From an uncultured Clostridia bacterium (GTDB lineage Bacteria > Bacillota > Clostridia > Christensenellales > CAG-917), in NCBI GenBank assembly GCA_947589395.1, contig CANQAA010000001.1, positions 449-64,448 on the forward strand: 64,000 bases of DNA, written 5' to 3'. Of the stretch, positions 30,428 through 53,366 are shown one piece after another; positions within the stretch are counted from its first letter, which is position 1; every line of letters starts with the position of its first letter. Both the position numbers and the translations under genes were made by a program. The notes under the pieces are model-generated. The model worked only from the letters and a program-made list of their open reading frames with translations. It was not told the DNA's origin and did no database searches.

Positions 30428-30591
30428 GCTTTCCTCCTCAAATTTGCATTATGTATTGTGTTTTTGACTCAACCTATCATATATAAACGGCAGACGCTCG
30501 TCGATCGTCCACCCACTCTATCTCCCGCTCGACCTTCCAAAAAGTCTTGCCGTCAAAAAGAGGCGCTCCTCATAAACCCCTGCTAAGCTAA

Positions 30592-30873
30592 CTATCCGAA
30601 TAGCACTTCTATGTCGTTTTCCGCTTCATATATCGTTTTGCCATTGAAAATCTTTGCCTCTTCAAAAGCGGTGACGCATTCGCGCCTATCTTTGGAAGTA
30701 TGTGCAAACAGCGTTTTGGAATCTTCCTCTATTGTGCAAACTTGCAAAGTATACAATTTGCCCGTTTCATCGCTAAAACCGGATATGATATACCTCCCGC
30801 CACCGCAAACAATTTCCTTTTCGGGATTGTAGTATAAGTCGCTTATAAATTCATTCAGAGTATTTCCTTTCAT
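30592..30873 (-). CDS. Small acidic hypothetical protein (last gene of the AT-rich islet)
   Basis: 93-aa ORF lying 24 nt after the preceding gene, on the same strand, in AT-rich DNA. Confidence 0.55.
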   Translation of the reverse strand: MKGNTLNEFISDLYYNPEKEIVCGGGRYIISGFSDETGKLYTLQVCTIEEDSKTLFAHTSKDRRECVTAFEEAKIFNGKTIYEAENDIEVLFG

Positions 30874-30897
30874 GGCATTCCACTCCTTTGAAATATT

Positions 30898-31461
30898 TTA
30901 TACTTTTCGTATAGTCCTTTCTGTCGACACGTCAAATTCCCCGTCATTATTCCAAAGGCTCAAATCTGAAAACAGTGGACAAACATCATCAATGCTTTTG
31001 TCGACATTCACATATATAACTTCGTCAAACCATACATGGCTCTTTGAAAATATAAACGAATGGTTTTCCGTCCTGACTATCAACGCCATGTCAATAACGA
31101 TATCTATGCCCTGTTCAGCACATTTGATCGTATCGGATACAATCTCAACGCTCGCTACAAGCTCGTCTACGTCATACATTTTTACGCCTGCGCCTTCCAA
31201 ACCGGGCATAAACGGATGGGCTGTATCGCTTATGCTACATGAAAATTTTGCCGCTTCCTCATATGGAACGTCCTCATTTTCAAACATAGCGATCTCTTCT
31301 TCCCCGTTTTTAAGCAATATGGACGTGCCGTCAAAATTGAGACGAGCCACACAATAAGACTGCCCTTCCATAGAATCGTCAGTTTCCACCGACAAAAACC
31401 GTTTGCCTACAATGCCTTTGAACATTTCTATCATATTTTCATCAAATTGCCATATAGTCAT
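30898..31461 (-). CDS. Acidic hypothetical protein (candidate cognate immunity/antidote)
   Basis: 187-aa D/E-rich ORF. Its ATG overlaps the stop of the upstream basic protein (ATGA). Confidence 0.6.
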   Translation of the reverse strand: MTIWQFDENMIEMFKGIVGKRFLSVETDDSMEGQSYCVARLNFDGTSILLKNGEEEIAMFENEDVPYEEAAKFSCSISDTAHPFMPGLEGAGVKMYDVDELVASVEIVSDTIKCAEQGIDIVIDMALIVRTENHSFIFSKSHVWFDEVIYVNVDKSIDDVCPLFSDLSLWNNDGEFDVSTERTIRKV

Positions 31462-31838
31462 TTTCTTTCCTCCTCAAAATGAATTTTTTGTGGCTTAATC
31501 TTGCCAGATTTAATAATTCGAATCTCAACCGCAGGACTTCCGGATTTAGAATATAAACGAAAGACCACTCTTGATCCGTCAGAAAAAATGGTTTGTTTCC
31601 CACGCCCATTAGCTAATTGTTCTTCATGTCCGCCTTTACTTATCTGCTTATAAAAGTGCTTTGCAGTTTCTATTGGTGTTGTACTACATATCACTCTGAT
31701 TCCACTATTCTTACCAGGTTGTCCAAAATATCCTTTTTGTGTTATAGGATACTTTTTTGACATTCTGTTTGCATTAGCGTCAATTCTACTTATACTACCT
31801 TTTGTGCCATAAAAATGGCCGCTATTTCCTGCTCCCAT
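31458..31838 (-). CDS. Small basic protein resembling a stand-alone polymorphic-toxin C-terminal module
   Basis: 126 aa, K/R-rich. N-terminal GNSGHFYGTKGS junction-like motif. C-terminal FRLYSKSGSPAVEIRI...KIHF pattern recalled from toxin C-terminal domains. Family not verified. Confidence 0.5.
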   Translation of the reverse strand: MGAGNSGHFYGTKGSISRIDANANRMSKKYPITQKGYFGQPGKNSGIRVICSTTPIETAKHFYKQISKGGHEEQLANGRGKQTIFSDGSRVVFRLYSKSGSPAVEIRIIKSGKIKPQKIHFEEERK

Positions 31839-31839
31839 A

Positions 31840-32508
31840 TCAGCCTACCTCCTTTTTATGAGATAAACTGAAATAGCTTTCATACTGCATTATGCTGACG
31901 CCATACATTTCTGCCAAACAGAATATTCTTGATGGTGCGCTTCCGTAAACTACAACATTTTTAGGCTGTAATTTGTTCAAGATATAATCAAATCCTTTGA
32001 TAAACATATGTTTGTATTCTTGAGATTTGATACAGCCATGCGTTCCTACAGCTATTGTTGAGTTACATTCCACCCCAAGACAAGCCAATTCGTATGTACG
32101 TTCATCTCCCCAACGTACATTTGGGATCGTCGGGATTCCATTATCATTCAGCCATGCGCCGACAGCCCTGCCGCGATATGTATTCCACTCTTGCATTACA
32201 AGCGGCATATCGTAATACAAACTGTAGTCCGGAGTGATTACTCCATCAAACTGTTTGAGAACAGATAGATACCTCTTGGGATCATTCCAAAAGGGCTCTA
32301 TCTTTTCATCATGCTCATAAAAAACCACGAACCCGGTGTGATCTTTTTCTGATTTCGCATGAGAGAACGGGACAAGTCGCGTAGGTAAAATGTCGGTTGT
32401 TTTCACACATGGTATTTCCAGCTCACCATCAAACCGAGCATGTTTCACCATGTATGCGTGAAAAACATCCTTACACCCTGTCCCATAATGTACAATAGTT
32501 TTTTGCAT
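31840..32508 (-). CDS. DUF4417-like protein
   Basis: FYEHDEKIEPFWNDPKRYL..FDGVITPDYSLYYDMPLVMQEWNTYRGRAVGAWLNDNGIPTIPNVRWGDERTYE matches my recollection of the DUF4417 signature. RBS AGGAG. Confidence 0.6.
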   Translation of the reverse strand: MQKTIVHYGTGCKDVFHAYMVKHARFDGELEIPCVKTTDILPTRLVPFSHAKSEKDHTGFVVFYEHDEKIEPFWNDPKRYLSVLKQFDGVITPDYSLYYDMPLVMQEWNTYRGRAVGAWLNDNGIPTIPNVRWGDERTYELACLGVECNSTIAVGTHGCIKSQEYKHMFIKGFDYILNKLQPKNVVVYGSAPSRIFCLAEMYGVSIMQYESYFSLSHKKEVG

Positions 32509-32623
32509 ATTATAGCTCCTATAACTTTAGTCAACCTTTGGTTGCCGTCAAATACTTGACATAAAAGACAGAGAGTGCTATAATATGCATATTCTAGAGC
32601 CATTATGGCACTTCTGAATGGCG

Positions 32624-32657
32624 CATAAAAGTTGCTGCAACAACTTTTATGCGCTGT
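32624..32657. terminator. Perfect 14-bp-stem hairpin between the ImmA and DUF4417 genes
   Basis: GCGCATAAAAGTTG-ctgcaa-CAACTTTTATGCGC. The T-run lies only on the plus side, so a role as a minus-strand terminator is uncertain. Confidence 0.4.
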
Positions 32658-32671
32658 TCTTTTATGTAGTG

Positions 32672-33199
32672 TTAATATGTTTTTCTTTTTTCAGCAGCCT
32701 TTTCGGATACACCATATGTAGTCATTATTTGTTCAACGGACATATTTTGTGTCGCCTCATATGGCATCATCACCTCGCCTGCTAATGCTTTTACTATCCA
32801 TTCAAGCCTACGATAACATGGCGTATCTTTTGCGATTATTGTACGAGAATAAATTGGTTTGAAACCAAGTTTATCAGCAAACACATGCATTATTTCATGC
32901 ATGATATGCATTCTGTATCCGCCAATATTGTTTTCTGCCGCTCCTTTATATACTGAATTTTTGATTTGTATTATATACCCATACTCGTTTTGATTACATT
33001 GTGCCGGCACGTTACATGGAAGTTCATTATCATCTAAAATTTCATAGTGTACATCCTCAAACCCTTCTATATCCGGCAACATATCAAGCATTGCAACAGG
33101 ATCCATTCGGGTATCTTGTCCAACCTTTGTAATTGAGCGAAATAATTTAGCATATAAGCGCAGTTCTTTGCGATTTGTCGGTTTAGTTTCGTAATCCAA
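32672..33199 (-). CDS. ImmA/IrrE-family zinc metallopeptidase
   Basis: HEIMH (HExxH) motif in MHIMHEIMHVFADKLG. 175 aa, and abuts the upstream XRE gene with no intergenic gap. Confidence 0.8.
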   Translation of the reverse strand: MDYETKPTNRKELRLYAKLFRSITKVGQDTRMDPVAMLDMLPDIEGFEDVHYEILDDNELPCNVPAQCNQNEYGYIIQIKNSVYKGAAENNIGGYRMHIMHEIMHVFADKLGFKPIYSRTIIAKDTPCYRRLEWIVKALAGEVMMPYEATQNMSVEQIMTTYGVSEKAAEKRKTY

Positions 33200-33562
33200 T
33201 CACTTTTCCTCCTTATTTAATAGGTTGAATATTGCATTAGCCGTTTCGTCATCCAGATCTTCAAACGAACGCTGAAATTGCAAAGCAACTCTTCTTTGAG
33301 ATTGTGTTGCGCTCGTCAAATCAATTTTTGCCTGTGTCTTGGATTCTGCTATGGCTTGTGATAATTCTTGCTGCTCTTGTACCGACAATGAATAGTGTTT
33401 GGTAATAATATCAAACCAATTATCAGGGACATTTCTCTTCCCTGTTTCCACTGCAGAAACAAATGGGAGTGTAACTCCTAACAATTTTGCCGTATTCGAC
33501 ATTGTTTCTTTATGTCTGATTCTCTGTATCCTCATAAACTCACCAAACTTTGTGTATGCCAT
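33200..33562 (-). CDS. XRE-family HTH regulator (ImmR-like partner of ImmA)
   Basis: FMRIQRIRHKETMSNTAKLLGVTLPFVSAVETGKRNVP is a typical HTH. RBS AGGAGG. Confidence 0.85.
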   Translation of the reverse strand: MAYTKFGEFMRIQRIRHKETMSNTAKLLGVTLPFVSAVETGKRNVPDNWFDIITKHYSLSVQEQQELSQAIAESKTQAKIDLTSATQSQRRVALQFQRSFEDLDDETANAIFNLLNKEEK

Positions 33563-33603
33563 GCTTCGTTCCTCCTAAATGGTCTGTTACCATCTTTACT
33601 AAA

Positions 33604-33632
33604 ACTATAACATATACAATTTTAGATGTCAA
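33604..33632 (-). promoter_or_regulatory. Sigma-A-type promoter of the XRE-ImmA islet
   Basis: TTGACA, 17 nt, TATAGT on the minus strand, about 40 nt upstream of the XRE start. Confidence 0.6.
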
Positions 33633-33846
33633 CAATAAAGCTAAAATAAGTTAAGTTTTTTAATCACTTTTTTAAACAGCGGTAAAATAGGTGTTCTGTT
33701 TGTGTGGAGTGGGGAGCGCACTCATGTTACAACAAACGCTCCATATATAATTTAGCATAACGAACAAGCAAAAACAATCCGTATTTGAGAATTTAAAAAG
33801 CGGCTTGACAAATCGCCAAACCGCCTCTTGTTGCCCCCGCATCAAA

Positions 33847-36305: not shown

Positions 36306-37046
36306 ATGACAAAATCCATTCTGATTGCAGATGACAACCAATCCCTTGCATTGAGCCTCAAGGACTTTCTCTCCTCAAAAGAGGACTGCTCCGTCGTCGG
36401 CGTCGCGTACAACGGCGCGGAAGCCCTCAAAGCGGCGGAGGAACTTTCTCCGGATATCCTCATATTGGATATAGTTATGCCGGAGCTGGACGGCTTCGGC
36501 GTGCTCGCGGCGCTCAGCTCCAAAAAGCCCGCCGTGATCATGATGTCTCAGCTCGCTTCGGACGGGTTCGTGCAAAAGGCGATGCAATACGGGGCGAGCT
36601 ACTTCCTCGCCAAGCCTTTTGACTACGCCGTCCTGTACAGGGTCATTGAGGAGCTGACGAGCGAACAAGCGCCGTCCAAGCCGCGCGACAAGCGCAACAA
36701 GACGCTCGACGAGAAGATCGCCAACCTCTTCATCTCGGTGGGCATACCCGCGCACATAAAGGGCTATCAGTTCTTGAGAGAGGCGATAAAGATGACCATC
36801 GAGACGCCCGACATCATCAACGCGATCACCAAGCGGCTGTATCCCGGCATCGCGGAGAGGTACGGCACGTCCGCGTCTAAGGTCGAGCGCGCCATCAGAC
36901 ACGCCATCGAGGTCGCGTGGAACAGGGGCAAAATCGAGAACATCAACAACGTTTTCGGGATCAAGATCTACTCTCCCAACGAAAAACCCACAAACGGGGA
37001 GTTCATCGCTCTTATCGCCGACAAACTTCTGCTCGAGAGCGCGTGA
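36306..37046 (+). CDS. spo0A: Sporulation master response regulator Spo0A
   Basis: Receiver domain (ILIADDN, DILILDIVMPELDG). The diagnostic Spo0A C-terminal domain is present: PAHIKGYQFLREAI, SKVERAIRHAIEVAWNRG and KPTNGEFIALIADKL. Confidence 0.96.
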   Translation: MTKSILIADDNQSLALSLKDFLSSKEDCSVVGVAYNGAEALKAAEELSPDILILDIVMPELDGFGVLAALSSKKPAVIMMSQLASDGFVQKAMQYGASYFLAKPFDYAVLYRVIEELTSEQAPSKPRDKRNKTLDEKIANLFISVGIPAHIKGYQFLREAIKMTIETPDIINAITKRLYPGIAERYGTSASKVERAIRHAIEVAWNRGKIENINNVFGIKIYSPNEKPTNGEFIALIADKLLLESA

Positions 37047-38682
37047 TCACGCGGTATGCGCCCGGTTTTATACGCAATACGCACGCGCGCAACAATCAGA
37101 TCATAACGCGTCGCGCACGCGTAGGCGTAAATGTCCGCACGGAACATGCAAGCTGTAGGGGTTTACACGGGCTGTAGGGTTTATGCAAGCTATTGGGACA
37201 TATAAAAGCGATAGAGTTCGCGGCATATTGACGAAAGACGTCTTCCTGCCGATCGCAAAAAACGAGGGAATGCGAGACGGAAGGATGTCGCCGTACAAGC
37301 GTATGACGCGCTCTGTGACTTGAAGCCTTGATAGGCTCACGCTGCCCTTTTATGGCCGCTAAGGCGCAAAGATGTCGCTGCAACTTGCGCGTGTTCGCGA
37401 ACGTATGCGCCCGCCGTATGACGAAAATCATGTTGTACGGCGTGTTGCTGCTTGCGCTTGCTCGCGATCGCATGCGCGATTGTCGCGGCAGAGGCAATTC
37501 CTTTTGCAAAACTCGGGGATATGGGGAGGCAACTGCTCATGGAGTATACAAACCCAACGCCATATCCGGCAGGGGAGACCACACTCCCCGCCTCCCCTAT
37601 CCCGCAATCGCAAAAAGGGCGTTCTCGCGACATGTCTTGATAGGCAGTCTTGACGCGTGCATTCAAATGGGCGATTTCCTCTTGCGTCGCTTTGCATGAG
37701 GGCGTGTTACGCAATGTTTTGTGCGTCCTACGGTTTTGTTTTGCATAGCCGACGAGCTTCGGGGCTTTTTAGCAATGCATAGTCTGGTCGACGACCGTAG
37801 GAGATTTTGAGCAACGTCGCTTACAAAACGGCTTTTCAACTATGCGACTTTTGAAAGCGCTTATGTGCGCCGTCTCGTCTTACTTAAACGAGTCTATATG
37901 CGAGGCGCTTTTTGCAACGAAGTAGATAAGAACGATTTATATTTAAATTAGCTAATGTTTATTGATATTTTAGTATACTTGTGAACTATTATGCGCTGTT
38001 GAAAGCGTCGCCGTCTATTCTTTGCATTATTAGTCCAATCCAATGTCCTCGATTGAGCTGTTGTGCGCAGTCAACATCGATTCCGATTCGCCATTAAACT
38101 TGTCCTATGCCACTGACTGCAATGCGCCAATCAAGGTAATCGCTGAGTATACAAATGGGAAAGTCGCGTTGCTTGCGCACTCGATTTTAGTCAATTACCC
38201 GTCTGATGTAAGTCATAAAGACAAAAGCTGAACTGTGCGGTAATAGCAATTCAAGCGAAAAAAGCGTAAGTACAAGCAAAATAATACCCATAACATATGG
38301 AATAACTTGCAAAAACAGAACTTACTTCCATAAAATTATTAGTCAGAGCACAGGTCAATTACAGATATTATTGCGATAAAGCTTAGAACTAAAACATTGT
38401 AAAAATACAAAATTCAGGCAAGAAAAACGCCAATAAACAGTGATGTTTTACAAAAAATTAACAAACTACAAGCTCGGAAACGGCTGACGAGACAAGGCAT
38501 CGCCATATATAGAATATTGTGAAACAAATTCAAAAAAATCAAGAAAATTTGCGAAACATTCTCTGAAAAATCGGGGTGAAAAATTTGGGTGAAAGGAGCT
38601 CAAAATTTTTCAAGGAGAAAGAACGAAATTTACTTTTCGGTGAGCAAAACACCTACTATTTAGTGGCATTTTCGCTGTTTTC

Positions 38683-38698
38683 GGTTTCACGTGAAACG
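38683..38698. promoter_or_regulatory. parS site (14/16 match to consensus)
   Basis: gGTTTCACGTGAAACg compared with TGTTNCACGTGAAACA. Confidence 0.75.
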
Positions 38699-38713
38699 GA
38701 CGGAGCGGATTTT

Positions 38714-38729
38714 TGTTCCACGTGAAACA
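38714..38729. promoter_or_regulatory. parS site (16/16 match)
   Basis: TGTTCCACGTGAAACA is identical to the Bacillus-type Spo0J/ParB binding consensus. Confidence 0.85.
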
Positions 38730-39533
38730 TTGACTTTTCTTGGAATTTTCCGCCATACTGACCCGAAAACCCCGCTGCGCGACAGATCGACTTATGATAG
38801 GAGTTTTTCTCTCTTGCGCACAATAAAATCCCAAACACGTTAAGCTCCTCAGCTTGGGACGACCGGCTCAAATAATGCCGCTGTATTGATGGCAACTGCC
38901 CAAACGATTTATGACCGACTGTCTTCTTTTTTTATACCCTTCTTTACGGCTTTTGGGCTTACAGTCACACTTTTGAACAATATTTTGATATTTTGCCACA
39001 AAACTGACCGCTCTGCAGACTGTCACGCTTCTTTTATGTAAAAAACCGGCCTATAACATCTTTCAGACCATATGTTGAGAAACTGAGAAAATCAATCATT
39101 TTTATTTCGCCATTCATGACCTGTTTATCGTCCAAATTTCACCGGAAACTATTGATTTTGTTGCCAAACACTATACTACAAAGACAAATTGGACGAACTG
39201 CTTAAGAGAAAGATGACGGCAATTATATGAATAAGCAAGCGCGTGTGCGGGCAATATTTGTACTACGCAAATTTGTCATAGTGTGAGCAACCAAGTTTGC
39301 TTGTGAGCGATCTCTAAGGTTATTGACGAGCAAAAGCGCACACAAGTACAATTTATCAATTGGCAAATTTGCTGTCAAGGGGCTAATCGGTGGGGCAAGT
39401 AGCTAAAGAATATAAGGGATTACGGGGATTCACATGATATATCGCCGAGAGCGGTCTTGCAGTCAATTTTGCGCGTTTGACAAAACCTCGATTTCTTCAC
39501 TATTCAGTGGCATTTTTGAGACAATTTCCGCGA

Positions 39534-39549
39534 TGTTTCATGTGAAACA
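39534..39549. promoter_or_regulatory. parS site (15/16 match)
   Basis: TGTTTCATGTGAAACA embedded in the longer palindrome cgcgaTGTTTCATGTGAAACAtcgcg. Confidence 0.75.
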
Positions 39550-40790
39550 TCGCGCAATATTCGATAGTTGCGCACCACTTGTATAATAAACAACACGGGT
39601 TACAACGGTAAGTATCGAACTGCAAGCGTAGCACATTATGGCAAATATATCATATGACAGGAGTTGTGCATAACGCCAATGTTATGCATGGCAGCAAAAC
39701 ATAGCGTGTGCCGGCTGACAGAGCGCGTGGTGTCAATCATAACGTGTGACGGCATGCTCCATGCGAGACATGGTAGACAGGACATTTCGACGGCAGCAAA
39801 AAGGCTCAATTCAAACTTTGTGAATTACAGCAAATGTTCTGCATGATCTAAAGCAGCGCAGAAATTGTAAGTATTGTGAGCGCCAAGCAAAACGTGTGGC
39901 AAGCAAAGCATGTTGGGCAATATATAATTCGTGCAGGACAAGAAGGAAAAACTTAAGACGAACAAAAAAGGTGAGCGCAAAAATCATTGAGACGAGAGAA
40001 ATTATAGTGAAAGATGTGAGGGGACGATATGTTTGGCATGCGGCATGTAAATAAGTGAGACATGTGTCAAAAGGAATGAATGAGAAGCGTGAGGGGCAAT
40101 CGAGGATCATATGCCGACACCTTCCCTGCAATGTAATAGACTCGTGAACTTGTCAAAAGTCGAAAAGATCCGTGCGCAAATGAATGCGGGTAGCGATCTG
40201 AACAGTGCAAAACTGTTTACACATGTATGTGCGAGCGAATATTAGCGTGGCCGTGCATGTTGGGTGACGACGAGCGGGGACGAGGCATAAAGGCAAAAGG
40301 CATGCGGGTTTAACAGGTTGGCGGGCATATAAAAACGAGAAAGCGGGCGAGGACGGTGCGCAAAGTCGACATGCGAGACGAACGAGCGGACGAGCCGAGT
40401 GAAAAAGTTGATGCAAGAGCCGCCACGTTCGACATCAAAAAACGAAGACTTGAGTGGAGAGCGGACGGATATTGCATGCCAAAGCCGAAAAATGTCGAGC
40501 GATGGTTGGGCGAAATGGGCGCTAAAAAGCGAAATTCGGCGTGAGGAGCGGAAAAATCAAGGGGTTTGGGGAGTGGGGCGGAAAGCAAAATTACAGGGAA
40601 TCGGAATTTTCGCGGGATGAGGAATGTATCGGCTTCGCGGAAAAATTCTCGACAGAAAAATTTGCCGTATGCTCGAAGCAAAATTTGCCGTATGTTTGGG
40701 ACAAAATTTTACCGCTCGACGAGTAGTCTTGCTCTTCTCCTGCGCACAATCTTGCGCATCGCTCGTTCCTTCGAATGGTTTAATGAAAAT

Positions 40791-41130
40791 GACTATTCTA
40801 ATAATATACGGCTATCCTCAAATAAGTAAGATCTCTCTGATGTTATAAAGCTATCCTCTTGGGATATGGGTATCATAATGAAATACGGGTGTCATAATGA
40901 GGTAGTGTATTATAATGATATAGGGTTATCCCAATGATATGGATTATTATTTTATAGGGCGTTCCGGTGGGATCAACTATCTTTTCGGGGCAAATCGTCC
41001 CATTCGAGATGAAGCTATCATGACGAGGCAAAGTTATCCCCATGCGTTATGACTTTCCAAATGATATATAGCTATTCTAATAAGATATGACTATACCAAT
41101 GAGATACGACAAAACTAATGAGATGGAGCC
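40791..41130. repeat. Array of about 17 degenerate 18-20-bp units, each a small dyad (TATC-N5-GATA type), in two blocks
   Basis: Units start at 40791, 40811, 40850, 40870, 40889, 40907 and 40925, then 41014, 41033, 41051, 41071, 41089 and 41108. Examples are gttatcccaatgatatgg and gctattctaataagatat. Stops occur in all frames. Confidence 0.7.
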
Positions 41131-41704
41131 TTCTATTATATAAAAATATGTTGCTTTTGATCTTTCACGTTACAATATTGATAGGGTAGTTTAGTTATCC
41201 CATGCACAAACGTATGAACGTTGTTTTGAAGACATTCAATCGCTTTTCCCGCATTTTTCGAATCTACACTTCCCACAAGCGGGACAAGTTTGCGTGACAA
41301 TTTAGGCATTATGTTTAATTGAACAGGCTATATACGTCTCTTCGGCAATTGTATAGCTGCTTGGATGTTGCAAGATCACCCTTTATTCCCGCTTTTTGGT
41401 CTGCTGGTTTCTGTGGCCGGACAAAATGCCGGCGCGATCTTTATGTTTTTGCGTTTTTATAAATATTACCTTTTATACTTTTACTTTTCCTGCGCTCGGT
41501 GGATGTTTGTTTTAACTCCTCACTTCGCAAGGGCGTTTTTATGCGCCCGTCGCTTTATCGACGATATTTGGGCTGCCGCGCCATATTTTCGTCACATACA
41601 GTATATTAGTTAACAAGTAAACTAATATGCATCATCAAAAGTTTCTGCGTTTGATCCGCTATGCGGAACGTATGATGTTTGCAATATACTTTGTGGAGTT
41701 TGGA

Positions 41705-42400
41705 TCACTTTGCGGCGTTCAGGGTGCGGATGATCGCGGGAAGGAGTTCTTCGTAGCGGCTCAAGCCCTTTTTGACAACAGAAGAGAAGCTCTCGGGAGC
41801 GCTATCATCGGCGCGATCGGAAACGACTTTGATTGAAACGAGGGGAAGCCCGTTTCTTTCGGCGGCGATGGCAATGCCCGCAAGTTCCATGTCGCAAATT
41901 TGCGCTCCAAAGTCCTCACGCAGACTGTGCTTTGTCTCTGCGCCCGCAACGAACACGTCGCCGGAGGCAACGCTCACCCGCCTCAGAGCGCTCTCAGAAG
42001 CCGTCAGAGAGGCGACGAGCCCTTCGTCGAGGACAAACCAGACGTCGTCCTTGCCGTCGTACTGTCCAGCTTTGACGCCGTCTAAGGCGGACGTGTCGAA
42101 TTGATAGTGGCAGACTTTGTCCGCTATCACAACCGAGCCCACGTCGAGGTCGTTTGCAAGCGCGCCGACGAAGCCGAAGTTGACGATCGCCTCGACAGAG
42201 TAGACGTCCTTGAGCAACTGTACGGCAAGCGCCGCGCGGATCTCGCCGACGCCGCTCGTCGCAACGAAGAGTTCGTCCTCGCCTGTCATGACGGCGCGAA
42301 CGGTCACGCCCGCGACGGTATCGACCTTTTTCACGTTTCCCAACTTTTGATATATCGGCAGGGCCTCTTCGGCCATTGCCGCGATGATACCTATTTTCAT
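41705..42400 (-). CDS. mtnN: 5'-methylthioadenosine/S-adenosylhomocysteine nucleosidase family protein
   Basis: MKIGIIAAMAEEA...TSGVGEIRAA...CDMELAGIA match PNP_UDP_1 / Pfs-like motifs. Confidence 0.75.
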   Translation of the reverse strand: MKIGIIAAMAEEALPIYQKLGNVKKVDTVAGVTVRAVMTGEDELFVATSGVGEIRAALAVQLLKDVYSVEAIVNFGFVGALANDLDVGSVVIADKVCHYQFDTSALDGVKAGQYDGKDDVWFVLDEGLVASLTASESALRRVSVASGDVFVAGAETKHSLREDFGAQICDMELAGIAIAAERNGLPLVSIKVVSDRADDSAPESFSSVVKKGLSRYEELLPAIIRTLNAAK

Positions 42401-42505: not shown

Positions 42506-43201
42506 GTGGAAAACGAAATAGACTTTTTGACGGAAGGAGCAAGAGCGCTCGGCGTGGAGCTTGAAAGAGGCAAGTGCGAAAAGCTCGTCGACTTCAAGCG
42601 GCGGGTGCTCGAGGCGAACAAACTTTTCAACCTCACCGCGATAACAAACGACGAGGAGTTTTTGATCAAGCACATTCTCGACTCCCTCTCGGCATCCCCC
42701 CTCATATCTCGCGGCGCGAGACTGCTCGACATAGGCTCGGGGGCGGGCTTTCCCGCCATGCCGCTCGCGATAGCGCGGGAGGACATATTTGTCGTTGCCC
42801 TTGACGCGACCTTGAAAAAGACGACGTTTTTGAGCGAGGCGGCAAGGGAGCTGAACGTAACAAACCTCACCGCCGTAAGCGGACGCGCGGAAGAGAAGCG
42901 CGAGCTTTTTTGCACTTTCGATTTCGTTACCGCGAGAGCGGTCGCGCCGCTGACAATACTTCTCGAACTCGCCTCCCCGATGCTTAAGGCGGGCGGCACG
43001 TTCGTTGCGTACAAAACGGACGAAAACGAGGTTTATCTTGCAAAAGAAGCGCTTAAAGTGCTGAATATGAAATTTGAGGGCGCAAAACGGTTGACTCTCC
43101 CGAACGGAGACGGGAGAAGTTTGCTGCTGTTCGAGCAGGTTTTGCCCTGCCCGAAAAGATATCCGAGACAGTTCGGAGCGATCAAAAAACACCCACTGTA
43201 A
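42506..43201 (+). CDS. rsmG: 16S rRNA (guanine527-N7)-methyltransferase
   Basis: GTG start. NLTAITNDEEFLIKHILDS and the SAM motif LLDIGSGAGFPAMPLAI. Lies upstream of parAB. Confidence 0.9.
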   Translation: MENEIDFLTEGARALGVELERGKCEKLVDFKRRVLEANKLFNLTAITNDEEFLIKHILDSLSASPLISRGARLLDIGSGAGFPAMPLAIAREDIFVVALDATLKKTTFLSEAARELNVTNLTAVSGRAEEKRELFCTFDFVTARAVAPLTILLELASPMLKAGGTFVAYKTDENEVYLAKEALKVLNMKFEGAKRLTLPNGDGRSLLLFEQVLPCPKRYPRQFGAIKKHPL

Positions 43202-43333: not shown

Positions 43334-44101
43334 ATGGCGCGCACGATTGCTTTTTCAAATCAAAAAGGGGGCGTTGGCAAGACCACGACCTGCGTCAATC
43401 TCGCGGCGGCGCTCGCGGGAATGGGCAAAAAGACGCTTGTGGTGGACTTCGACCCGCAGGCGAATGCGTCAAGCTCTCTCGGGGTGTTCGACAAAAACGA
43501 GAAGGGCTCGATATATTCCGTTTTGTGCGAAGATCTCGACATAAACGACGCGATCGTACCAAGCGAGGAAGATGGGCTCTTCTTCATTCCATCCTCAAGC
43601 GACGTTGCGGGAGCGGAGTTGGAGCTTTCTCAGATCGTCATAGGGCGGGAGCGCGTCCTCGAGGAAAAGTTGGAGGAACTAAAGGGTGAGTTCGACTTTG
43701 TATTCGTCGACTGTCCGCCCTCGCTTGGACTTTTGACAGTCAACGCGCTCACGGCGTCTGACGGGGTGATCATCCCCATACAGTGCGAATTTTTCGCGCT
43801 CGAGGGACTCACGCAGATGATGAACACGATCCGCCTCGTCAAAAAGCATCTCAACTCGTCCATCGAGATAGAGGGCGTCGTGCTCACGATGTACGACGCA
43901 AGAGCCAAGCTCACAAAGGGCGTGCTCGACGAGATAACGAAGTTTTTCAAGGACAAGGTCTTTGAAAGCAAGATCCCGCGCAACATTCGCCTCGCCGAAG
44001 CGCCGAGCTACGGAAAGAACATCTTTGCGTACGACCGTCGCTGCGCGGGCGCAAACGCATACATCGCTCTTGCAAAAGAATTTTTGAATAAGATAGATTA
44101 G
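43334..44101 (+). CDS. parA: Chromosome partitioning ATPase ParA/Soj
   Basis: Deviant Walker A in IAFSNQKGGVGKTTT, plus VVDFDPQANAS. Confidence 0.93.
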   Translation: MARTIAFSNQKGGVGKTTTCVNLAAALAGMGKKTLVVDFDPQANASSSLGVFDKNEKGSIYSVLCEDLDINDAIVPSEEDGLFFIPSSSDVAGAELELSQIVIGRERVLEEKLEELKGEFDFVFVDCPPSLGLLTVNALTASDGVIIPIQCEFFALEGLTQMMNTIRLVKKHLNSSIEIEGVVLTMYDARAKLTKGVLDEITKFFKDKVFESKIPRNIRLAEAPSYGKNIFAYDRRCAGANAYIALAKEFLNKID

Positions 44102-44110
44102 GAGGCTATT

Positions 44111-45004
44111 ATGGCGACAAAAAAAGGCGGACTTGGAAAGGGTCTCTCCGCGCTGTTCAGCGACAGCGAGGTGAACGTCCCCGTTGAAAATCTCGAGGAT
44201 TATCAAATCGTGGATATAGACATATCCCTGCTCGATCGCAACCTCAAGCAACCCAGAAAATCCTTTGACGACGACAAGCTCAAGGAGCTTGCCTCATCCA
44301 TCTCGACCTACGGCGTGCTTCAGCCGCTCATTCTTGCAAAGCAAGGCGAAAGATATCTGATCATCGCGGGCGAAAGAAGATACCGCGCAAGCCTCATCGC
44401 GGGCAAAAAGACCGTCCCTGCGATCCTAAAAGAGTACACCCCCGAGCAGATACAGGAAATTTCCCTCATCGAAAACCTGCATAGGGAAGACCTCAACGCC
44501 ATCGAGGCGGCGGAGGGTATGCGCGAGCTCATGGACAATCACGGGCTCACTCAGGAGGAAGTCGCTCAGCGCATAGGCAAGTCCCGCCCGTACGTCACGA
44601 ACACGCTCAGGCTGTTGCAACTGCCAAAGGAAGTGCTCGATCTCGTGCGCTCGGGAGAACTCTCGCCCGGTCACGCAAGGACGCTCATCTCCATTGACAA
44701 CAAGGCGTTTTTGATCGAACTCGCAAAAAGAGCGGTGCAGAGCGGCATGTCCGTGAGAGAGCTCGAACAGCACGTCCGCATGTACTTCACGCGCAAGGAT
44801 ATCCCCGTCGGGCCCAACAAAAATCAGGAAGTCACCCTCGAGATGAAGGAGTTCGTCAGCGACCTAAAGCGCCTCTTTGCAACGAAGGTAAAGATCAAAG
44901 GCAATCGCAACAAGGGCAGGATCACCATCGACTACTTCTCGGCGGACGATCTTGACAGAATTTACTCCCTCGTCCACGCGATGAAAGAGAAGAGCGAAAT
45001 GTAA
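44111..45004 (+). CDS. parB: Chromosome partitioning protein ParB/Spo0J
   Basis: GLGKGLSALF, LQPLIL..YLIIAGERRYRA (ParB box) and an HTH (LTQEEVAQRIGKSRPYVTNTLRLL). Confidence 0.93.
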   Translation: MATKKGGLGKGLSALFSDSEVNVPVENLEDYQIVDIDISLLDRNLKQPRKSFDDDKLKELASSISTYGVLQPLILAKQGERYLIIAGERRYRASLIAGKKTVPAILKEYTPEQIQEISLIENLHREDLNAIEAAEGMRELMDNHGLTQEEVAQRIGKSRPYVTNTLRLLQLPKEVLDLVRSGELSPGHARTLISIDNKAFLIELAKRAVQSGMSVRELEQHVRMYFTRKDIPVGPNKNQEVTLEMKEFVSDLKRLFATKVKIKGNRNKGRITIDYFSADDLDRIYSLVHAMKEKSEM

Positions 45005-45140: not shown

Positions 45141-46310
45141 ATGTACGCGCTGCTGCTTGCTTTAATTTATCTTGCCTTCATCAGTTTGGGGCTGCCGGAC
45201 TCCCTGCTTGGCGCGGGGTGGGCGGTCATGCACGTCGAGATGGGCGCTTCGGTGTCGTCTATGGGCGTGCTCACGATGATAATTTCCGGCTCGACGATCG
45301 TCTCGAGCTTGTTTTCCGACAAACTCACAAAAAAGTTGGGCACGCGGGTGGTGACGGTGGTCTCCGTCTTTTTGACCGTCGTCGGACTTTTGGGATTTTG
45401 TTTTTCAAACAAATATTATTTGCTCGCGATATCTTCTATCCCGTACGGCTTGGGCGCTGGCGCGATAGACGCGTCGCTAAACAACTACATCGCGCTTCAC
45501 TACTCGGCAAAACATATGAGCTGGCTACATTGTTTTTGGGGCGTCGGCGCGATCGTGAGCCCGTTTATCATGGGTTATTCGCTCGCAAACATAAGCTGGC
45601 GAGGCGGCTATTTCATCGTGGCGTGCATTCAGATCGTCATCGGATTTATTTTGCTTGCGACCCTGCCCGTTTGGAAGGTCAATCCGATAAAGGAAGCGGA
45701 ACAGAAGGGGAGCGTGGGGGTGATATCCGCGCTTAAGATCAAGGGCGTGCCCCTAATTTTGCTCGGGTTTTTCGCATATTGCGCGGCGGAGGCGACGACA
45801 ATGCAGTGGGCGAGCACATATTTTGTTCAGGTCAAATCTTTGAGCGCGGAAAAAGCCGCAAATCTCGCGTCTCTATTTTACATCGGCATGACGGCGGGAA
45901 GGTTTGTCGCGGGGTTCGTCTCGGACAGGCTCGGGGACAAGAAAATGATCATAATCGGCACATGTATTTTGTTTTTGGGGTTGATTTTGCTTGCGCTGCC
46001 CGTGCGCGGCACAAATTTGGCTATCGCCGGATTTTTGATAATCGGGCTCGGATGCGCGCCGATATATCCAAGCATCGTTCACTCTACGCCCGGCAATTTC
46101 GGGCTCGCGTCTTCGGGCGCGATAATTTCCATTCAAATCGCCTTCGCGTACGTCGGAAACACGTTTATGCCGCCTCTATACGGGCTTTTGGGAAGTAAGA
46201 TCGGCTTTTCTATCATGCCGTTTTATCTGATATTCTTCTTTGCTCTCATGATCTTGTTCACGATGCTCACGTTCAAAGTTTGCAAAAAGAAAAGCGAGAG
46301 TCTCGCTTAA
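45141..46310 (+). CDS. MFS transporter
   Basis: 389 aa with about 12 hydrophobic segments and MFS-like loops (SDKLTKKLGTR, SDRLGDKKM). Confidence 0.8.
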   Translation: MYALLLALIYLAFISLGLPDSLLGAGWAVMHVEMGASVSSMGVLTMIISGSTIVSSLFSDKLTKKLGTRVVTVVSVFLTVVGLLGFCFSNKYYLLAISSIPYGLGAGAIDASLNNYIALHYSAKHMSWLHCFWGVGAIVSPFIMGYSLANISWRGGYFIVACIQIVIGFILLATLPVWKVNPIKEAEQKGSVGVISALKIKGVPLILLGFFAYCAAEATTMQWASTYFVQVKSLSAEKAANLASLFYIGMTAGRFVAGFVSDRLGDKKMIIIGTCILFLGLILLALPVRGTNLAIAGFLIIGLGCAPIYPSIVHSTPGNFGLASSGAIISIQIAFAYVGNTFMPPLYGLLGSKIGFSIMPFYLIFFFALMILFTMLTFKVCKKKSESLA

Positions 46311-47395
46311 CCCTCGCCGACAACTCTTCCGTTTGAAATTTTGATGATCTTTGCGGGACAGTCCACAGTGAAATCGTTGCAAGTCGTTATGATAGTCTGA
46401 AACCCCTCCGTCATTTTTAAGAGCATAGTCTGTCTCGTCTCATCGAGCTCGCTCAGCACGTCGTCAAGGAGCAAAACGGGCGGCTCGCCTATCTCGTCTT
46501 TGTATATGACGACCTCTCCGAGCTTCATTGAGAGCGCTATTGAGCGCTGTTGCCCTTGCGAGGCGTACTTTCTGCTGTCCTTGCCGTTGATTTCGATCTT
46601 TATGTCGTCCCTATGCGGTCCTACGGTCGAAAAACCGAGTTCCTTGTCCTTCTCGCGCGAGGCGACTATCTTTTGATAGAGTTCTTTTTCGACGTTGTCG
46701 AAATTTTCTATCGTCGTCTCGTATGAGAGTTTGAGCTCCTCTTTTTGCATGCTTATCTCTTTATGAAACCTGTTTGCGGCTTGATTTAGGGTTTGGATAT
46801 ATTCCACGCGCTTTGAAATTATAATCGCGCCTTCTTTTGCAAGGGAGAGATCCCACACGTCCAACATTTCGTCAGCGTGGTCGGAATGATTGTAGTTTTT
46901 GAGCAGGTTATTTTTTTGTTTCAGCAGTTTATTGTAGCGTTGCAGACAGATAAAGTAGCTTTTTTGTTGTTGAGAGAGTCCTATATCCATAAATCTGCGG
47001 CGCTCCTGCGGGGACTCTTTTATGAGTTTCATCTCGTCGGGGGAGAAGAACACGACGCCCAAAACGCCAAGTAATTCCCCCGCCCTTTGCACGGGGATCT
47101 TGTCTATCATCACCCGCTTTTTTCCGCTCTCGTCGATTTGAATGTCTATCCTATACTTTTTATATTTTTTGTCGACTACGACCTTTATGCTCGCTTTTTC
47201 CTCGCCTATTTTTATGAGTTCCTTATCTTTAAGAGTGCGCGGGCTATGCAGCATGGACGCCATATACACGCTCTCGAGCATATTCGTTTTGCCCGTCGCG
47301 TTGTCCCCGAATATGACGTTCAGCCCGCCGTCGAATTTGACGGAGGCGCTCTTGTAATTCCTGAAATTTTCTATTTCGAGGGAGGAAATTTTCAT
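46307..47395 (-). CDS. recF: DNA replication and repair protein RecF
   Basis: LEIENFRNY...GDNATGKTNMLESV (Walker A), SQGQQRSIALS and LLLDDVLSELD. Confidence 0.93.
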   Translation of the reverse strand: MKISSLEIENFRNYKSASVKFDGGLNVIFGDNATGKTNMLESVYMASMLHSPRTLKDKELIKIGEEKASIKVVVDKKYKKYRIDIQIDESGKKRVMIDKIPVQRAGELLGVLGVVFFSPDEMKLIKESPQERRRFMDIGLSQQQKSYFICLQRYNKLLKQKNNLLKNYNHSDHADEMLDVWDLSLAKEGAIIISKRVEYIQTLNQAANRFHKEISMQKEELKLSYETTIENFDNVEKELYQKIVASREKDKELGFSTVGPHRDDIKIEINGKDSRKYASQGQQRSIALSMKLGEVVIYKDEIGEPPVLLLDDVLSELDETRQTMLLKMTEGFQTIITTCNDFTVDCPAKIIKISNGRVVGEG

Positions 47396-47457
47396 AATTT
47401 AAGTATAACCCGTCGGGCGCGATTTTTCAACTTGTTGCGTATTTGTTTTTTATTTAC

Positions 47458-47485
47458 TTGAAAAATTTTTGCATTTTGCTATAAT
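47458..47485 (+). promoter_or_regulatory. dnaA promoter (extended -10) ending 6 nt before the ATG
   Basis: TTGAAA, 16 nt, TGcTATAAT. There is no Shine-Dalgarno sequence between the -10 and ATG 47492. Confidence 0.5.
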
Positions 47486-47491
47486 AAAACT

Positions 47492-48865
47492 ATGATAAAT
47501 ATAGACGAATTTTGGGCGAACGTAAGCACAGAGCTTTCAATTTCAATGAACACTCTGCATTATCAACTCTGGATCGAACATCTTGAGCCCGTTTGCTTTA
47601 TCAACAACTCCCTCGTTCTTATGACCATCACAGAGATGGCAAAGCGCACAATAGACGCAAAATATCGCGACGTGATAAAGGAAGTTGCAAACTCAATCAA
47701 CTCGTTTGTGGACGACATCATCATAATAACTCCCGACAAAAAGGACGAGTTTTTGTCAAAGCAAAATATATTTATCGAAAACAAGGGTTTCGTCACAAAA
47801 AAGCCCGTGAAGGACATTTCGGACATTCGCCATTGCCAATTTCTTGAGAAGTTCACGTTTGAAAACTTTGTGGAAGGCGCGTCAAACAGTTTTGCTCTTG
47901 CCGCTTGCAAGACCGTCGCGGAAAATCCGGGAGGGAAGTACAACCCGCTCTTCATCTACTCCGGCGTGGGACTCGGAAAGACGCATCTTTTGCACTCGAT
48001 AGGCAATTACATCTTCAAAAACTCGCCGAAGACGAGCGTGCTTTACGTCAGCACGGAGTCTCTTGTCAACGACCTTATTTCCGTGTTCCGCACGGGGTCT
48101 AACGAAAAAAACAACGAATTTCGCGAAAAATACCGTTCTTGCGACATCCTCATGGTGGACGACATTCAATATCTCATCGGAAAAGACGCAATACAGAATG
48201 CATTTTTCAACATCTTCAACGACCTGTATCATCAAAACAAGCAGATCATTTTGACTTCGGACAGAGCTCCAAAAGACCTGACTACTCTCGAGGACAGGCT
48301 TCGCACGCGCTTCAGTTGGGGGCTTATGGTCGACATTCAGCCGCCGGATCTCGAACTTAGGGTCGCGATACTCAAAAACAAAGCGGATCAGGCAAACTTC
48401 GACCTCTCCGACGAAGTGGCGCTCTTTATTGCCGAGCACGCGCAGACGAACATTCGCGAGCTTGAGGGATTTTTGAATAAGATAATCTTTTACAGCTCCC
48501 TCACAAACACCGTCATTCGCACAAAAGAGCTTGCGTATGAGGCGATAAGCGACTTCATTGAGGACAAAAAGGATACTGTCGAGGCGTGCGATATCATCGA
48601 TTGCGTCTCAAAATATTTCAACATCTCCCAGCAGGATTTGTTTGCAAAAAAGCGCACGAAGGGCGTCGTTGAGCCGAGAATGATAGCGATCTATCTCATC
48701 ACCGAGCTTCTGCCCATGCCCCTCTCGCAAATAGGGGAGTTGTTTGGCGGAAGGGATCACACGACCATCATCCACGCCCGCGACAAGATAAGCGAAGAGA
48801 TAAAGGTCAATCCCCGCATGCGCATCATCGTCACCGACATAAAAAATATGATATTGAATAAGTGA
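47492..48865 (+). CDS. dnaA: Chromosomal replication initiator protein DnaA
   Basis: AAA+ motifs (GGVGLGKTHLLHSIGN, DILMVDDIQYL) and the domain IV motif (FGGRDHTTIIHARDKI). Confidence 0.97.
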   Translation: MINIDEFWANVSTELSISMNTLHYQLWIEHLEPVCFINNSLVLMTITEMAKRTIDAKYRDVIKEVANSINSFVDDIIIITPDKKDEFLSKQNIFIENKGFVTKKPVKDISDIRHCQFLEKFTFENFVEGASNSFALAACKTVAENPGGKYNPLFIYSGVGLGKTHLLHSIGNYIFKNSPKTSVLYVSTESLVNDLISVFRTGSNEKNNEFREKYRSCDILMVDDIQYLIGKDAIQNAFFNIFNDLYHQNKQIILTSDRAPKDLTTLEDRLRTRFSWGLMVDIQPPDLELRVAILKNKADQANFDLSDEVALFIAEHAQTNIRELEGFLNKIIFYSSLTNTVIRTKELAYEAISDFIEDKKDTVEACDIIDCVSKYFNISQQDLFAKKRTKGVVEPRMIAIYLITELLPMPLSQIGELFGGRDHTTIIHARDKISEEIKVNPRMRIIVTDIKNMILNK

Positions 48866-48867
48866 AT

Positions 48868-48905
48868 TAAAAAAAAACGGCTGTTTTTGCAGCCGTGTTT
48901 TTTTA
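48868..48905. terminator. Bidirectional terminator between convergent dnaA and dnaN
   Basis: A9, then ACGGCTG/CAGCCGT stem, then T7. Confidence 0.75.
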
Positions 48906-48910
48906 TAGTT

Positions 48911-50011
48911 TTATCCGATAACTCTCAAGGGAAGGATGAGATACAGCCACTTGTTTGTCTCGCCCTTTATTATGCACGGGGCAGTTGAGGATGTGAAGTT
49001 GAGCGTAACATACGGCTCGTCGATCGCGTGCATGCAGTCGATGAGATATTTTGAGTTGAAGCCGATGACGAGGTCCTTGCCTTTGAGGCTGATTGCGACC
49101 TTCTCGTTTATCTCGCCGTCCTCGCTGTGCGCGTAAAGCTGGATGTTGTCCTCTTTGACCTCTATCCTCACATAAGATTTTTTATCCAGTCGGTTGATGA
49201 GCGCAACTCTGTCGATGGAGTTTTCAAACTGTTTTTTGTCTATCGTGACTTCGGTTGAAAAGACGTTGGGAATGATGCGCTCGTAGTTGATATATTCCTC
49301 GCTGATTAGGCGTGTGACGATCTTTGTGTGGAAGAGATCCACCATGATGTAGTTTTTCTCGACAAACACGGTGATGGTCTCGTCGCCGTCGTCGATAAGG
49401 CGGGAGAGCTCGTTCATGCTCTTTGCCGGAACGACGATCTTGTCCACAATGCCGTTGTTTTTGATGACGGAGCGTGTGAGAGCAAGGCGATATCCGTCGC
49501 TTGCGACAGCCTCGAGCTCATCCTCTTTGATGTTAAGACATACGCCGCGAAGGGTGGGGCGCGCCTCGTCTACGGACACGTTGAAGATGACCTTGTTGAT
49601 GACTTCTTTCAGCTCTTTTTTCAAGATGACGAAGGAGTGCGAGGTGTCGACTTCCTTGAAAACGGGATATTCTTCCGCCGCAAAACACTTTATTTGCAAC
49701 TCGCTGTCAGGATATCTTATGACGAGTTTTGAAAGCGCCGTACCGTCAAGCTCGACCTCTTCGGTCTCGATCTTCTTCGCGTAATCCGCAAACAGCTTGC
49801 CCGGAACGACGACTTCGCCGTCTATCAAGACTTTGGCGTTTATTTTCTTTTCGATTGCCAACTCCAGATCCGTTGCAAAAAGCGTGAGCGTGTCGTCTTT
49901 TGCGGTGACTTTCACGCCTTCCAATATTGCGTTCGTCCTCTTTTGAGGAAGCGCCTTTACTACCTTGCTCAATGCGTCGCTGAGTTCATTTCCTTGACAA
50001 ATAACTTTCAT
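48911..50011 (-). CDS. dnaN: DNA polymerase III beta sliding clamp
   Basis: 366 aa. MKVICQGNELSDALSKV..ILEGVKV..., three-domain length, C-terminal LYLILPLRV. Confidence 0.93.
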   Translation of the reverse strand: MKVICQGNELSDALSKVVKALPQKRTNAILEGVKVTAKDDTLTLFATDLELAIEKKINAKVLIDGEVVVPGKLFADYAKKIETEEVELDGTALSKLVIRYPDSELQIKCFAAEEYPVFKEVDTSHSFVILKKELKEVINKVIFNVSVDEARPTLRGVCLNIKEDELEAVASDGYRLALTRSVIKNNGIVDKIVVPAKSMNELSRLIDDGDETITVFVEKNYIMVDLFHTKIVTRLISEEYINYERIIPNVFSTEVTIDKKQFENSIDRVALINRLDKKSYVRIEVKEDNIQLYAHSEDGEINEKVAISLKGKDLVIGFNSKYLIDCMHAIDEPYVTLNFTSSTAPCIIKGETNKWLYLILPLRVIG

Positions 50012-52416: not shown

Positions 52417-52433
52417 AAAAAGGAGATAAAATT

Positions 52434-52751: not shown

Positions 52752-52810
52752 ATTACAAAATCTATAAAGCATCAAAAATATCACCTCATTCGGGGTGATA
52801 TTTGTCTCTC

Positions 52811-53240: not shown

Positions 53241-53241
53241 A

Positions 53242-53317: not shown

Positions 53318-53336
53318 ATATCTTTTATGCTTGAAT

Positions 53337-53366
53337 ATCATAATATCATACGCCCGATTTTGTCAA
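53337..53366 (-). promoter_or_regulatory. Promoter of tRNA-Asn
   Basis: TTGACA, 18 nt, TATGAT on the minus strand, about 20 nt upstream of the tRNA 5' end. Confidence 0.45.

Follow-up and report, generated by a model that had tools for sequence, protein, structure and literature searches.

What does a bacterial chromosome hold in more than 4.6 kb of DNA without a recognisable gene? The question is raised by positions 37047–41704 of a 64,000-nt window from an uncultured Clostridia bacterium (GCA_947589395.1, contig CANQAA010000001.1, positions 449–64,448 of the forward strand), a stretch that lies between spo0A and mtnN and is called the desert here; all coordinates are positions in this window. 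A preliminary description had proposed that the desert could be a segregation or organisation locus, one or more large non-coding RNAs, or the corpse of a mobile element, and had likened its surroundings to those of a replication origin. We consider it probable that the core of the desert is the ParABS centromere of this chromosome, with a strain-invariant repeat array and neutral spacer DNA besides.

The window was scored against the Firmicute-type parS consensus TGTTNCACGTGAAACA, a 16-bp palindrome. Three parS-like 16-mers were found, all within the desert and none elsewhere in the 64 kb, where 0.37 would be expected and where none of 100 shuffled sequences reached three; further candidates in the 64 kb were limited to matches with four mismatches, at chance level. 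This bears out the preliminary description, which had placed three parS sites at 38.68–39.55 kb, and makes them the sole ones in the window. The sites are proximal to the origin and have cognate parA and parB genes, which lie 1.6 kb to the right of the desert. parS1 and parS2 are 31 bp apart and form part of a conserved module, and parS3, 0.85 kb off, belongs to a second unit:

38514–38735, plus strand: conserved centromere module, about 220 bp
38519–38525: heptamer GTGAAAC, within the module
38551–38557: heptamer GCGAAAC, within the module
38578–38595: invariant 18-mer GAAAAATTTGGGTGAAAG, within the module, ending in GTGAAAG
38615–38621: heptamer GAGAAAG, within the module
38646–38673: module hairpin with flanking A/T tracts
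38683–38698: parS1, two mismatches to the consensus
38714–38729: parS2, one mismatch to the consensus
39498–39549, plus strand: second hairpin–parS unit, with the hairpin core ACTATTCAGTGG (39498–39515) followed by parS3
39534–39549: parS3, one mismatch to the consensus

The heptamers of the module, of which GTGAAAC is a heptamer of the parS arm, are uniformly oriented and spaced by about 30 bp. The second unit fits a profile of hairpin–parS units at E = 4e-5 and has an 18-nt flank in common with the first. The idea that the whole desert was built from decayed units of this kind was discarded, as just two units exist. The module can with high confidence be predicted to be the ParB loading region. 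As a separate observation, GAAAAATTTG occurs in two exact copies in the 64 kb, both of them in the desert, at 38578 (the start of the 18-mer) and at 40655 (in the first of the 23-nt repeats described below). It may be a recognition core shared by the 18-mer and these repeats, the enrichment being weak.

The module was recovered from nine other loci, which come from other genera (nhmmer E values of 1e-81 to 6e-53); by the labels of their metagenome-assembled genomes (MAGs), these relatives are uncultured Christensenellales-like genera. The ten loci align over about 260 nt, the module measuring about 220 bp here and about 260–290 nt in the relatives. A metagenome scan with the 18-mer gave 81 matches, which led to seven further module loci; the other 74 had no parS and were dismissed as chance matches. 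All ten loci present the same order of elements: a GTGAAAC heptamer, the arm-like motif G[A/C]GAAACA, the invariant 18-mer, GAGAAAG, an A/T tract, a hairpin CCCACT-N4-AGTGGG flanked by A and T runs, and two parS sites. Distances are kept as well, with 31–33 bp between the twin parS sites across the ten loci and with heptamers that in most loci stand at offsets of −47, −17, +11, +48, +133, and +166 from the 18-mer, all in one direction.

The genomic setting of the module is also shared. In loci L082 and L084, gene-free gaps of 1.8–2.4 kb near the divergent rsmG/mtnN pair contain three to four parS sites each, together with a sequence that can be aligned to 38645–38733, and this divergent pair is kept in distant relatives. 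In L084, L091, L095, and L139, the module lies a few kb from mtnN(−), rsmG(+), parA, parB, recF(−), dnaA(+), and dnaN(−), the same gene set with the same orientations as in the window. In the relatives, the module is always located in kb-scale gene-poor DNA, in stretches of 1.8–3.4 kb. Comparison with related genomes, which the preliminary description had named as a check, found the module conserved in ten loci, and no homologues of 37380–37720 or of the repeat block described below. spo0A was tried as a synteny anchor (80 loci) and abandoned, since other genera have it away from the origin genes, with no desert DNA conserved at those loci. Several MAG contigs (L001, L023, and L026) with Spo0A 58–76% identical are labelled Bacteroides, Bacteroidaceae, or Faecalibacterium, which points to mis-binning or mislabelled taxonomy.

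Over the roughly 200 conserved nt upstream of the parS sites, RNAalifold found no structure, with a positive (unfavourable) covariation term. It predicted just the small hairpin in the module, in which one pair is changed on both sides. Since the module is unstructured as RNA, we take it to act as DNA. In the close Spo0A relative L012 (11510–11933), a near-identical hairpin sequence, AAAACCCTACTAAACAGTGG...TTTT, stands right after the 3′ end of the transfer-messenger RNA (tmRNA) gene. This gene, detected by ARAGORN, is located about 0.8 kb downstream of spo0A, and the hairpin takes the position expected of an intrinsic terminator, indicating that the module hairpin is an element reused in the lineage. 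The distal parS of relatives is also preceded by hairpins, with the same ACTnnTTAGT core. Given the terminator position in L012 and the hairpins before the second and distal parS sites, the hairpins can be read as putative terminator-type insulators placed before parS sites. In a clade comprising L091, L095, L098, L161, L163, and L165, TTTTCTATA abuts both full parS sites and degenerate arm-like motifs (for example at 1440–1490 and 2300–2350 of L095). The sequences suggest that the module may have arisen as hairpin–TTTTCTATA–parS units were duplicated and then decayed in part.

Variation between strains was used to map the desert at a finer scale. Two lineages were compared, one comprising the window with L081 and L168 and the other L166 and L167, from which the window differs by about 2.6%. 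In five flanking genes, pooled synonymous divergence (pS) is 0.039 and nonsynonymous divergence (pN) 0.007. In the desert, 178 positions vary (0.038), an average that matches neutrality, and they are distributed as a mosaic. In 38291–38513, about 25% of positions differ between strains versus 3.9% of synonymous ones, and divergence falls abruptly to zero at 38514, where the module starts. Under uniform placement of the 178 sites, the longest invariant run would have a median length of 141 nt, with 295 nt as the 99.9th percentile. The longest run observed, 759 nt at 40576–41334, covers a repeat block, exceeds every identical run of the flanking coding DNA, and is the longest of the 10-kb alignment. 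The second longest, 275 nt at 38533–38807, coincides with the module and its twin parS sites; a run of 192 nt at 39375–39566 contains the unit of parS3, with no differences over 53 nt; and other invariant runs lie at 40093–40359 (267 nt), 38959–39215 (257 nt), and 37177–37371 (195 nt). The other approximately 3 kb, including most of the purine-skewed and GC-rich parts, behaves as neutral spacer, with many indels and a rate of change equal to the neutral one or higher. A segregation locus, as had been proposed, is supported by parS sites in a module that is conserved across genera and invariant between strains, and it accounts for part of the region only. A long bacterial ORF (open reading frame) desert can thus be mainly neutral spacer with a few sharply bounded functional islands, and strain-level variation maps resolve these islands.

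This reading presupposes that the desert is in fact empty of genes. The interval and its neighbours are as follows:

37047–41704: whole non-coding desert, 4,658 nt from the spo0A stop to the mtnN stop
36306–37046, plus strand: spo0A, with the Pfam domain Spo0A_C
41705–42376, minus strand: mtnN, an MtnN-type nucleosidase, with the Pfam domain PNP_UDP_1
42542–43201, plus strand: rsmG, with the Pfam domain GidB
43334–44101: parA, following rsmG
44111–45004: parB, with the domains ParB_N, HTH_ParB, and ParB_C
47492–48865, plus strand: dnaA

The longest ORF of the desert in any frame has 137 amino acids (aa), as the preliminary description had stated. Period-3 power, with a median of 9.2 and a 10th percentile of 5.3 in the flanking genes (175 windows), drops in the desert to a median of 0.8 and never exceeds 3.4 there, values that shuffled sequence also gives. 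The six-frame translations, in which stops were masked, matched no Pfam family at E <= 1, and the small ORFs of the desert were negative in the Pfam scan as well. The GC-rich parts (37047–38250 and 39550–40800), translated in six frames, had no relatives among 5.8 billion proteins. Strain contigs L166 and L167, from the same species, span the whole interval at equal length, and gene calls leave it empty; indels between strains number 26 events in the desert versus none within the flanking coding sequences. A 62-aa ORF at 38043–38231 with a slight period-3 signal was rejected as a gene, having neither a ribosome-binding site nor a homologue and carrying a 2-nt strain indel. The desert, which is the longest non-coding run of the window (the runner-up, at 52.2–54.6 kb, measures 2.45 kb), is truly non-coding, not just ORF-poor. 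The preliminary description had also considered that relatives might carry intact protein genes here, making the region a pseudogene graveyard; tblastn of 846 ORFs from related loci matched nothing within the desert, and with no protein similarity, no codon periodicity, and no orthologues matching there, this idea was dropped. The diverging transcription that it had described exists at a wider scale, with genes to the left on the minus strand and rsmG, parA, parB, and dnaA on the plus strand, whereas the immediate neighbours spo0A(+) and mtnN(−) converge on the desert.

The longest of the invariant runs has a distinct architecture:

40576–41334: strain-invariant repeat block, 759 nt identical in the window, L166, and L167
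40648–40709: three repeats of about 23 nt, with the core AAAATTTGCCGTATG
40792–41127: array of about 15–18 phased 19-bp units, with the consensus GCTATCCTAATGAGATAGG and the palindrome CTATC-N7-GATAG
about 41130–41170: AT-rich stretch after the array

The array, which had been listed as dyad units at 40.79–41.13 kb, has a period of exactly 19 bp (autocorrelation of 0.43 at lag 19 and of 0.34 at lags 38 and 57). The block contains no substitutions, versus about 30 expected at pS = 0.039. L081 covers 40893–41334 and is identical there except for a 38-nt insertion, equal to 2 x 19 and thus to two whole units. No runs of array units were detected elsewhere in the window or in relatives with a position weight matrix of the unit, and searches for distant homologues of the invariant blocks found none. 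Fur, PerR, or Zur boxes (the 19-bp Fur box, 7-1-7) were considered and rejected, as the array matches them at the level of shuffled sequence. Judged by its layout, the block is most likely a cis-acting array for cooperative binding by a dimeric DNA-binding protein, an assignment in which we have moderate confidence.

The remaining zones are defined mainly by composition:

37380–37720: GC-rich, hairpin-rich segment with the nested dyad CGGGGATATGGGGAGGC...GCCTCCCCTATCCCG
38291–38513: A-rich hypervariable spacer, directly upstream of the module
39850–40575, plus strand: purine-skewed stretch, mostly at about the neutral rate, holding the 267-nt invariant run 40093–40359
41335–41704: T-rich variable tail, downstream of the mtnN stop

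All of the zones listed in the preliminary description were found again: the GC-rich part with its dyads, an A-rich part at 38.2–38.65 kb (AT skew of +0.33 to +0.37), a purine-skewed part at 39.85–40.72 kb (GC skew up to +0.36, AT skew up to +0.40), and an AT-rich tail, which is T-rich. Between strains, the bin 39551–40640 shows 3.85% substitutions and six indels, and the bin 41131–41704 shows 3.5% and three indels. The local fold at 41500–41700 has a z-score of −3.4 on both strands and may represent the terminator region of mtnN. At the right edge of the purine-skewed part, GGGGTTTGGGGAGTGGGGCGG (40561–40581) contains three G4 runs and a GG, with its last six bases within the invariant block, and could form a G-quadruplex. 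Spo0A boxes were considered as well and are not enriched in the desert.

Could any of this be better explained in another way? One or more long non-coding RNAs might be transcribed from the desert, for example from the plus strand at 39.85–40.7 kb or from the 37.4–37.7 kb segment. The purine skew on one strand is strong and resembles that of the sense strands of genes in this genome, terminator-type hairpins exist in the desert, and 37380–37720 folds at z = −4.6, with none of 100 shuffles equally stable and both strands folding well. However, the search in Rfam for large RNAs such as OLE, GOLLD, ROOL, HEARO, and raiA, which had been proposed as a check, yielded no family at the gathering score in 36500–42200 and just two chance matches at E <= 10, the sole gathering-score match of the window being the tRNA at 53245, and ARAGORN detected no tRNA or tmRNA in the desert. 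Fold z-scores in sliding windows stay near zero across 38–41.3 kb, including the purine-rich part and the invariant block, the places where they depart from zero being 37.4–37.7 kb, the parS dyads, and the end next to mtnN. The purine-rich part, at the neutral rate and with indels, has no excess folding and no protein homology, and 37380–37720 has no Rfam match, no homologue in relatives, and few strain differences, which weaken the inner stem and include none that is compensatory. As promoter and terminator consensus sites in the desert are also at chance level, and the module is unstructured beyond its hairpin, a long RNA is highly improbable. Alternatively, the desert or its right half could be what is left of a plasmid or other mobile element that had integrated, with the array and the 23-nt repeats as orphan iterons or a plasmid-type centromere deprived of its rep/par genes. 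Iteron origins and plasmid centromeres, F sopC among them, typically carry in-phase tandem repeats of 17–22 bp or palindromes in arrays, the array is species-specific, and a strain-variable island lies 3.3 kb to the left. Against this, blastn of the desert found no match among 72,556 plasmid records and 50,697 phage records, viral contigs scanned with two motif cores gave chance matches only, and no remnant of a Rep, Par, integrase, or other protein is present in the six frames, nor is there codon periodicity. An orphan should also drift, yet the block comprises the most conserved 759 nt of the 10-kb strain alignment, and the whole desert is present at equal length in every strain seen. The mobile-element corpse of the preliminary description is hence quite improbable. 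A further possibility is that everything but the parS module is non-functional and that the 759-nt block is a tract of recent homologous recombination between the two lineages. Bacteria commonly carry tracts of about this size, neither a binding protein nor a homologue is known for the block, and with only two diverged lineages compared, a tract could mimic constraint. However, the limits of the block enclose the repeats, starting about 70 nt before the 23-nt repeats and ending about 200 nt past the array; its flanks diverge more than synonymous sites; other invariant runs fall on independently validated elements (the module and the hairpin–parS3 unit); and array copy number changes with the 19-bp phase kept. 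The identity of the block, its indels by whole units, and its diverged flanks together favour a constrained element, and we regard recombination as rather unlikely.

The remaining alternative is that the desert holds oriC or half of a split origin, with the module, the A-rich DNA, and the repeat block serving initiation and the parS sites merely co-located. The cumulative GC-skew minimum falls at about 36–39 kb, although 64 kb is too short for this measure and the skew stays flat between 37 and 55 kb. Gene orientation switches at about 36–42 kb, genes to the left being almost all on the minus strand and rsmG, parA, parB, and dnaA on the plus strand, and dnaA itself is nearly without flanking intergenic DNA. 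In relatives, the non-coding region that bears the module is enriched in DnaA boxes (21 versus 5.9 +/- 2.4 expected), with six in L082 and five in L091; three boxes in tandem, including a perfect one, lie upstream of the first 18-mer copy in L082, which also has a very AT-rich stretch, and in six relatives a DnaA-box-like motif such as TGTTGATAAGTGG occurs about 400 nt upstream of the module. In contrast, the desert itself contains two DnaA boxes (TTATCCACA, <=1 mismatch) versus 1.14 expected (P = 0.33) and none of the lineage variant TTRTCMACA, four of which occur in the dnaA–dnaN region, and its only stretch of at least 85% AT (37931–37980) has no boxes nearby. The density of DnaA boxes peaks at 49–51.5 kb, where about six to seven box-like sites at 50012–50235, upstream of dnaN, lie beside a stretch of at least 90% AT (50019–50067). 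In L095, the AT-rich sequence of about 40 nt and TGTTGACAAGTGGAAAA upstream of dnaN are kept and followed by four exact boxes. In B. subtilis, the unwinding half of the origin is upstream of dnaN, the ancestral position in Firmicutes. Given the clustering of boxes and the AT-rich element upstream of dnaN, oriC is most likely located there, at about 50.0–50.2 kb, and the origin implied by the preliminary description is unlikely to lie in the desert. The origin genes of this lineage have an unusual and conserved order (46307–50235 here, 8142–12800 in L095, and also in L084): recF(−) and dnaA(+) diverge, about 100 bp apart; dnaN runs opposite to dnaA, their 3′ ends being only 46 bp apart; and the cluster of DnaA boxes and the AT-rich element lie upstream of the inverted dnaN.

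Several points weigh against a centromere core with a conserved array, in addition to the skew minimum, the boxes near the module in relatives, and the limitation to two lineages. Only one of the four upstream heptamers matches the parS arm exactly, the other three being degenerate. We infer ParB occupancy, the roles of the heptamers and the 18-mer, and terminator function. For the array, no DNA-binding gene is located nearby as a candidate binder, and no comparable array was found in relatives with Tandem Repeats Finder, autocorrelation, or nhmmer. Finally, the gene-poor stretch of the window, with 4.7 kb versus about 2 kb, is the largest seen; one may speculate that the surplus neutral DNA is tolerated, or that there is a benefit in keeping transcription units off the zone of ParB and SMC loading.

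If the core of the desert is the centromere, the full parS sites would be where ParB dimers load as clamps and from which they spread, and the upstream heptamers would provide weak ParB contacts. Such contacts are plausible at the first heptamer, because ParB of P. aeruginosa binds single parS arms (GTTCCAC/GTTTCAC) in vivo (PMC5961200). The hairpins would block transcription running into the loading sites, and the long gene-poor flanks would keep the loading zone clear of transcription units. The array, for its part, might serve segregation, anchoring of the origin, or regulation. A bolder version, which we put forward only tentatively, is that the lineage has a kind of "regional" centromere, a gene-poor zone of several kb in which terminators and oriented heptamers are functional in ParB and SMC loading, complemented in this species by a ParB-independent array whose 15–18 or so phased palindromic 19-bp sites would bind a protein with an anchoring or organising role at the origin, perhaps when the cell sporulates.

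The usual picture of a bacterial chromosomal centromere is one of isolated parS sites of 16 bp, dispersed within genes or in the gaps between them. The sites of the desert resemble those of chromosomal ParABS systems (B. subtilis Spo0J/parS and P. aeruginosa parS1–4) in being 16-bp palindromes with one to two mismatches to TGTTTCACGTGAAACA, clustered near the origin beside parAB. As in P. aeruginosa, where parS1–4 cluster with surrounding half-sites (PMC4368675, PMC5961200), additional single-arm heptamers occur around the full sites. Unlike in these systems, the sites are located in a multi-kb gene-free stretch and not in or between ordinary genes, the heptamers share one orientation at spacings of about 30 bp, and the twin parS sites have a roughly 220-bp module around them, kept across genera, in which an invariant non-parS 18-mer and a terminator-type hairpin stand at fixed distances.

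The array can be compared with plasmid centromeres and iterons. F sopC consists of 12 x 43 bp, each with a palindrome, R1 and pSK41 have their parC centromeres, and the origins of the P1 and F plasmids contain 19-bp iterons. Like these, the array is a head-to-tail series of short phased units, each an inverted repeat suited to a dimeric binder, and its copy number varies by whole units. It differs in that its units abut at a 19-bp period with no spacer, in having no adjacent par or rep gene and no plasmid or phage similarity, and in being chromosomal, origin-proximal, and strain-invariant. As cis-acting, origin-proximal sites for a non-ParB protein, RacA-ram of sporulating B. subtilis and RicO-ricS of S. 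aureus offer another parallel, and as the organism encodes Spo0A, it may sporulate. However, ram and ricS are single sites spread over 600–700 kb, and ricS is not palindromic (bioRxiv 10.64898/2026.03.06.710092), whereas the desert has one tandem array; a RacA- or RicO-like gene was not identified here, and the likeness is purely functional. The desert further resembles a Firmicute bipartite oriC in being long, non-coding, origin-proximal, and A/T-rich in places, with DnaA boxes accompanying the module in relatives; unlike such an origin, it has neither box enrichment nor a box-adjacent unwinding element, both of which are found at 50.0–50.2 kb.

While parS centromeres, half-site binding, and origin-proximal clustering are already known, the fixed multi-element module around twin parS sites, shared across genera, and the strain-invariant palindromic array of 19-bp units appear to be new; we found no description of such a parS module or of the array in the literature. 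The presence of parS within a longer conserved module in gene-poor DNA suggests that sequence context matters for ParB loading, be it insulation from transcription, weak half-sites, or DNA shape, and the module provides a defined sequence for testing such context. The 19-bp array, in turn, is a clear candidate platform for binding by a protein of the origin region, in a Spo0A-encoding group that has been little studied.

Several other features of the window were observed outside the desert. The second ORF-poor stretch (52151–54600, 2.45 kb) contains a 220-nt tandem duplication at 52813–53252 with 93% identity, which abuts the tRNA at 53245–53317(−). The same stretch holds the right-hand copy of a pair of non-coding repeats at 38–822 and 53474–54295, which are inverted, about 53 kb apart, and up to 198 nt long at 96% identity. 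These repeats contain hairpin units, for example ACCCCAACAAAYGAG...TTTGTTGGGGT, and enclose gyrBA, the pur operon, spo0A, the desert, parAB, dnaA, and dnaN, so that they could allow inversion of the whole origin segment. The island to the left of the desert (30567–33729), which is AT-rich with a GC content of 0.39–0.42, carries DUF4417 and M78-peptidase genes. Strain contig L166 has about 400 nt in place of the island, which is thus strain-variable and probably a mobile element. Finally, an 843-aa ORF on the minus strand (5020–7551), with about eleven internal 69-nt (23-aa) repeats and with 21-nt repeats near its 5′ end, probably encodes a repeat-rich surface protein.

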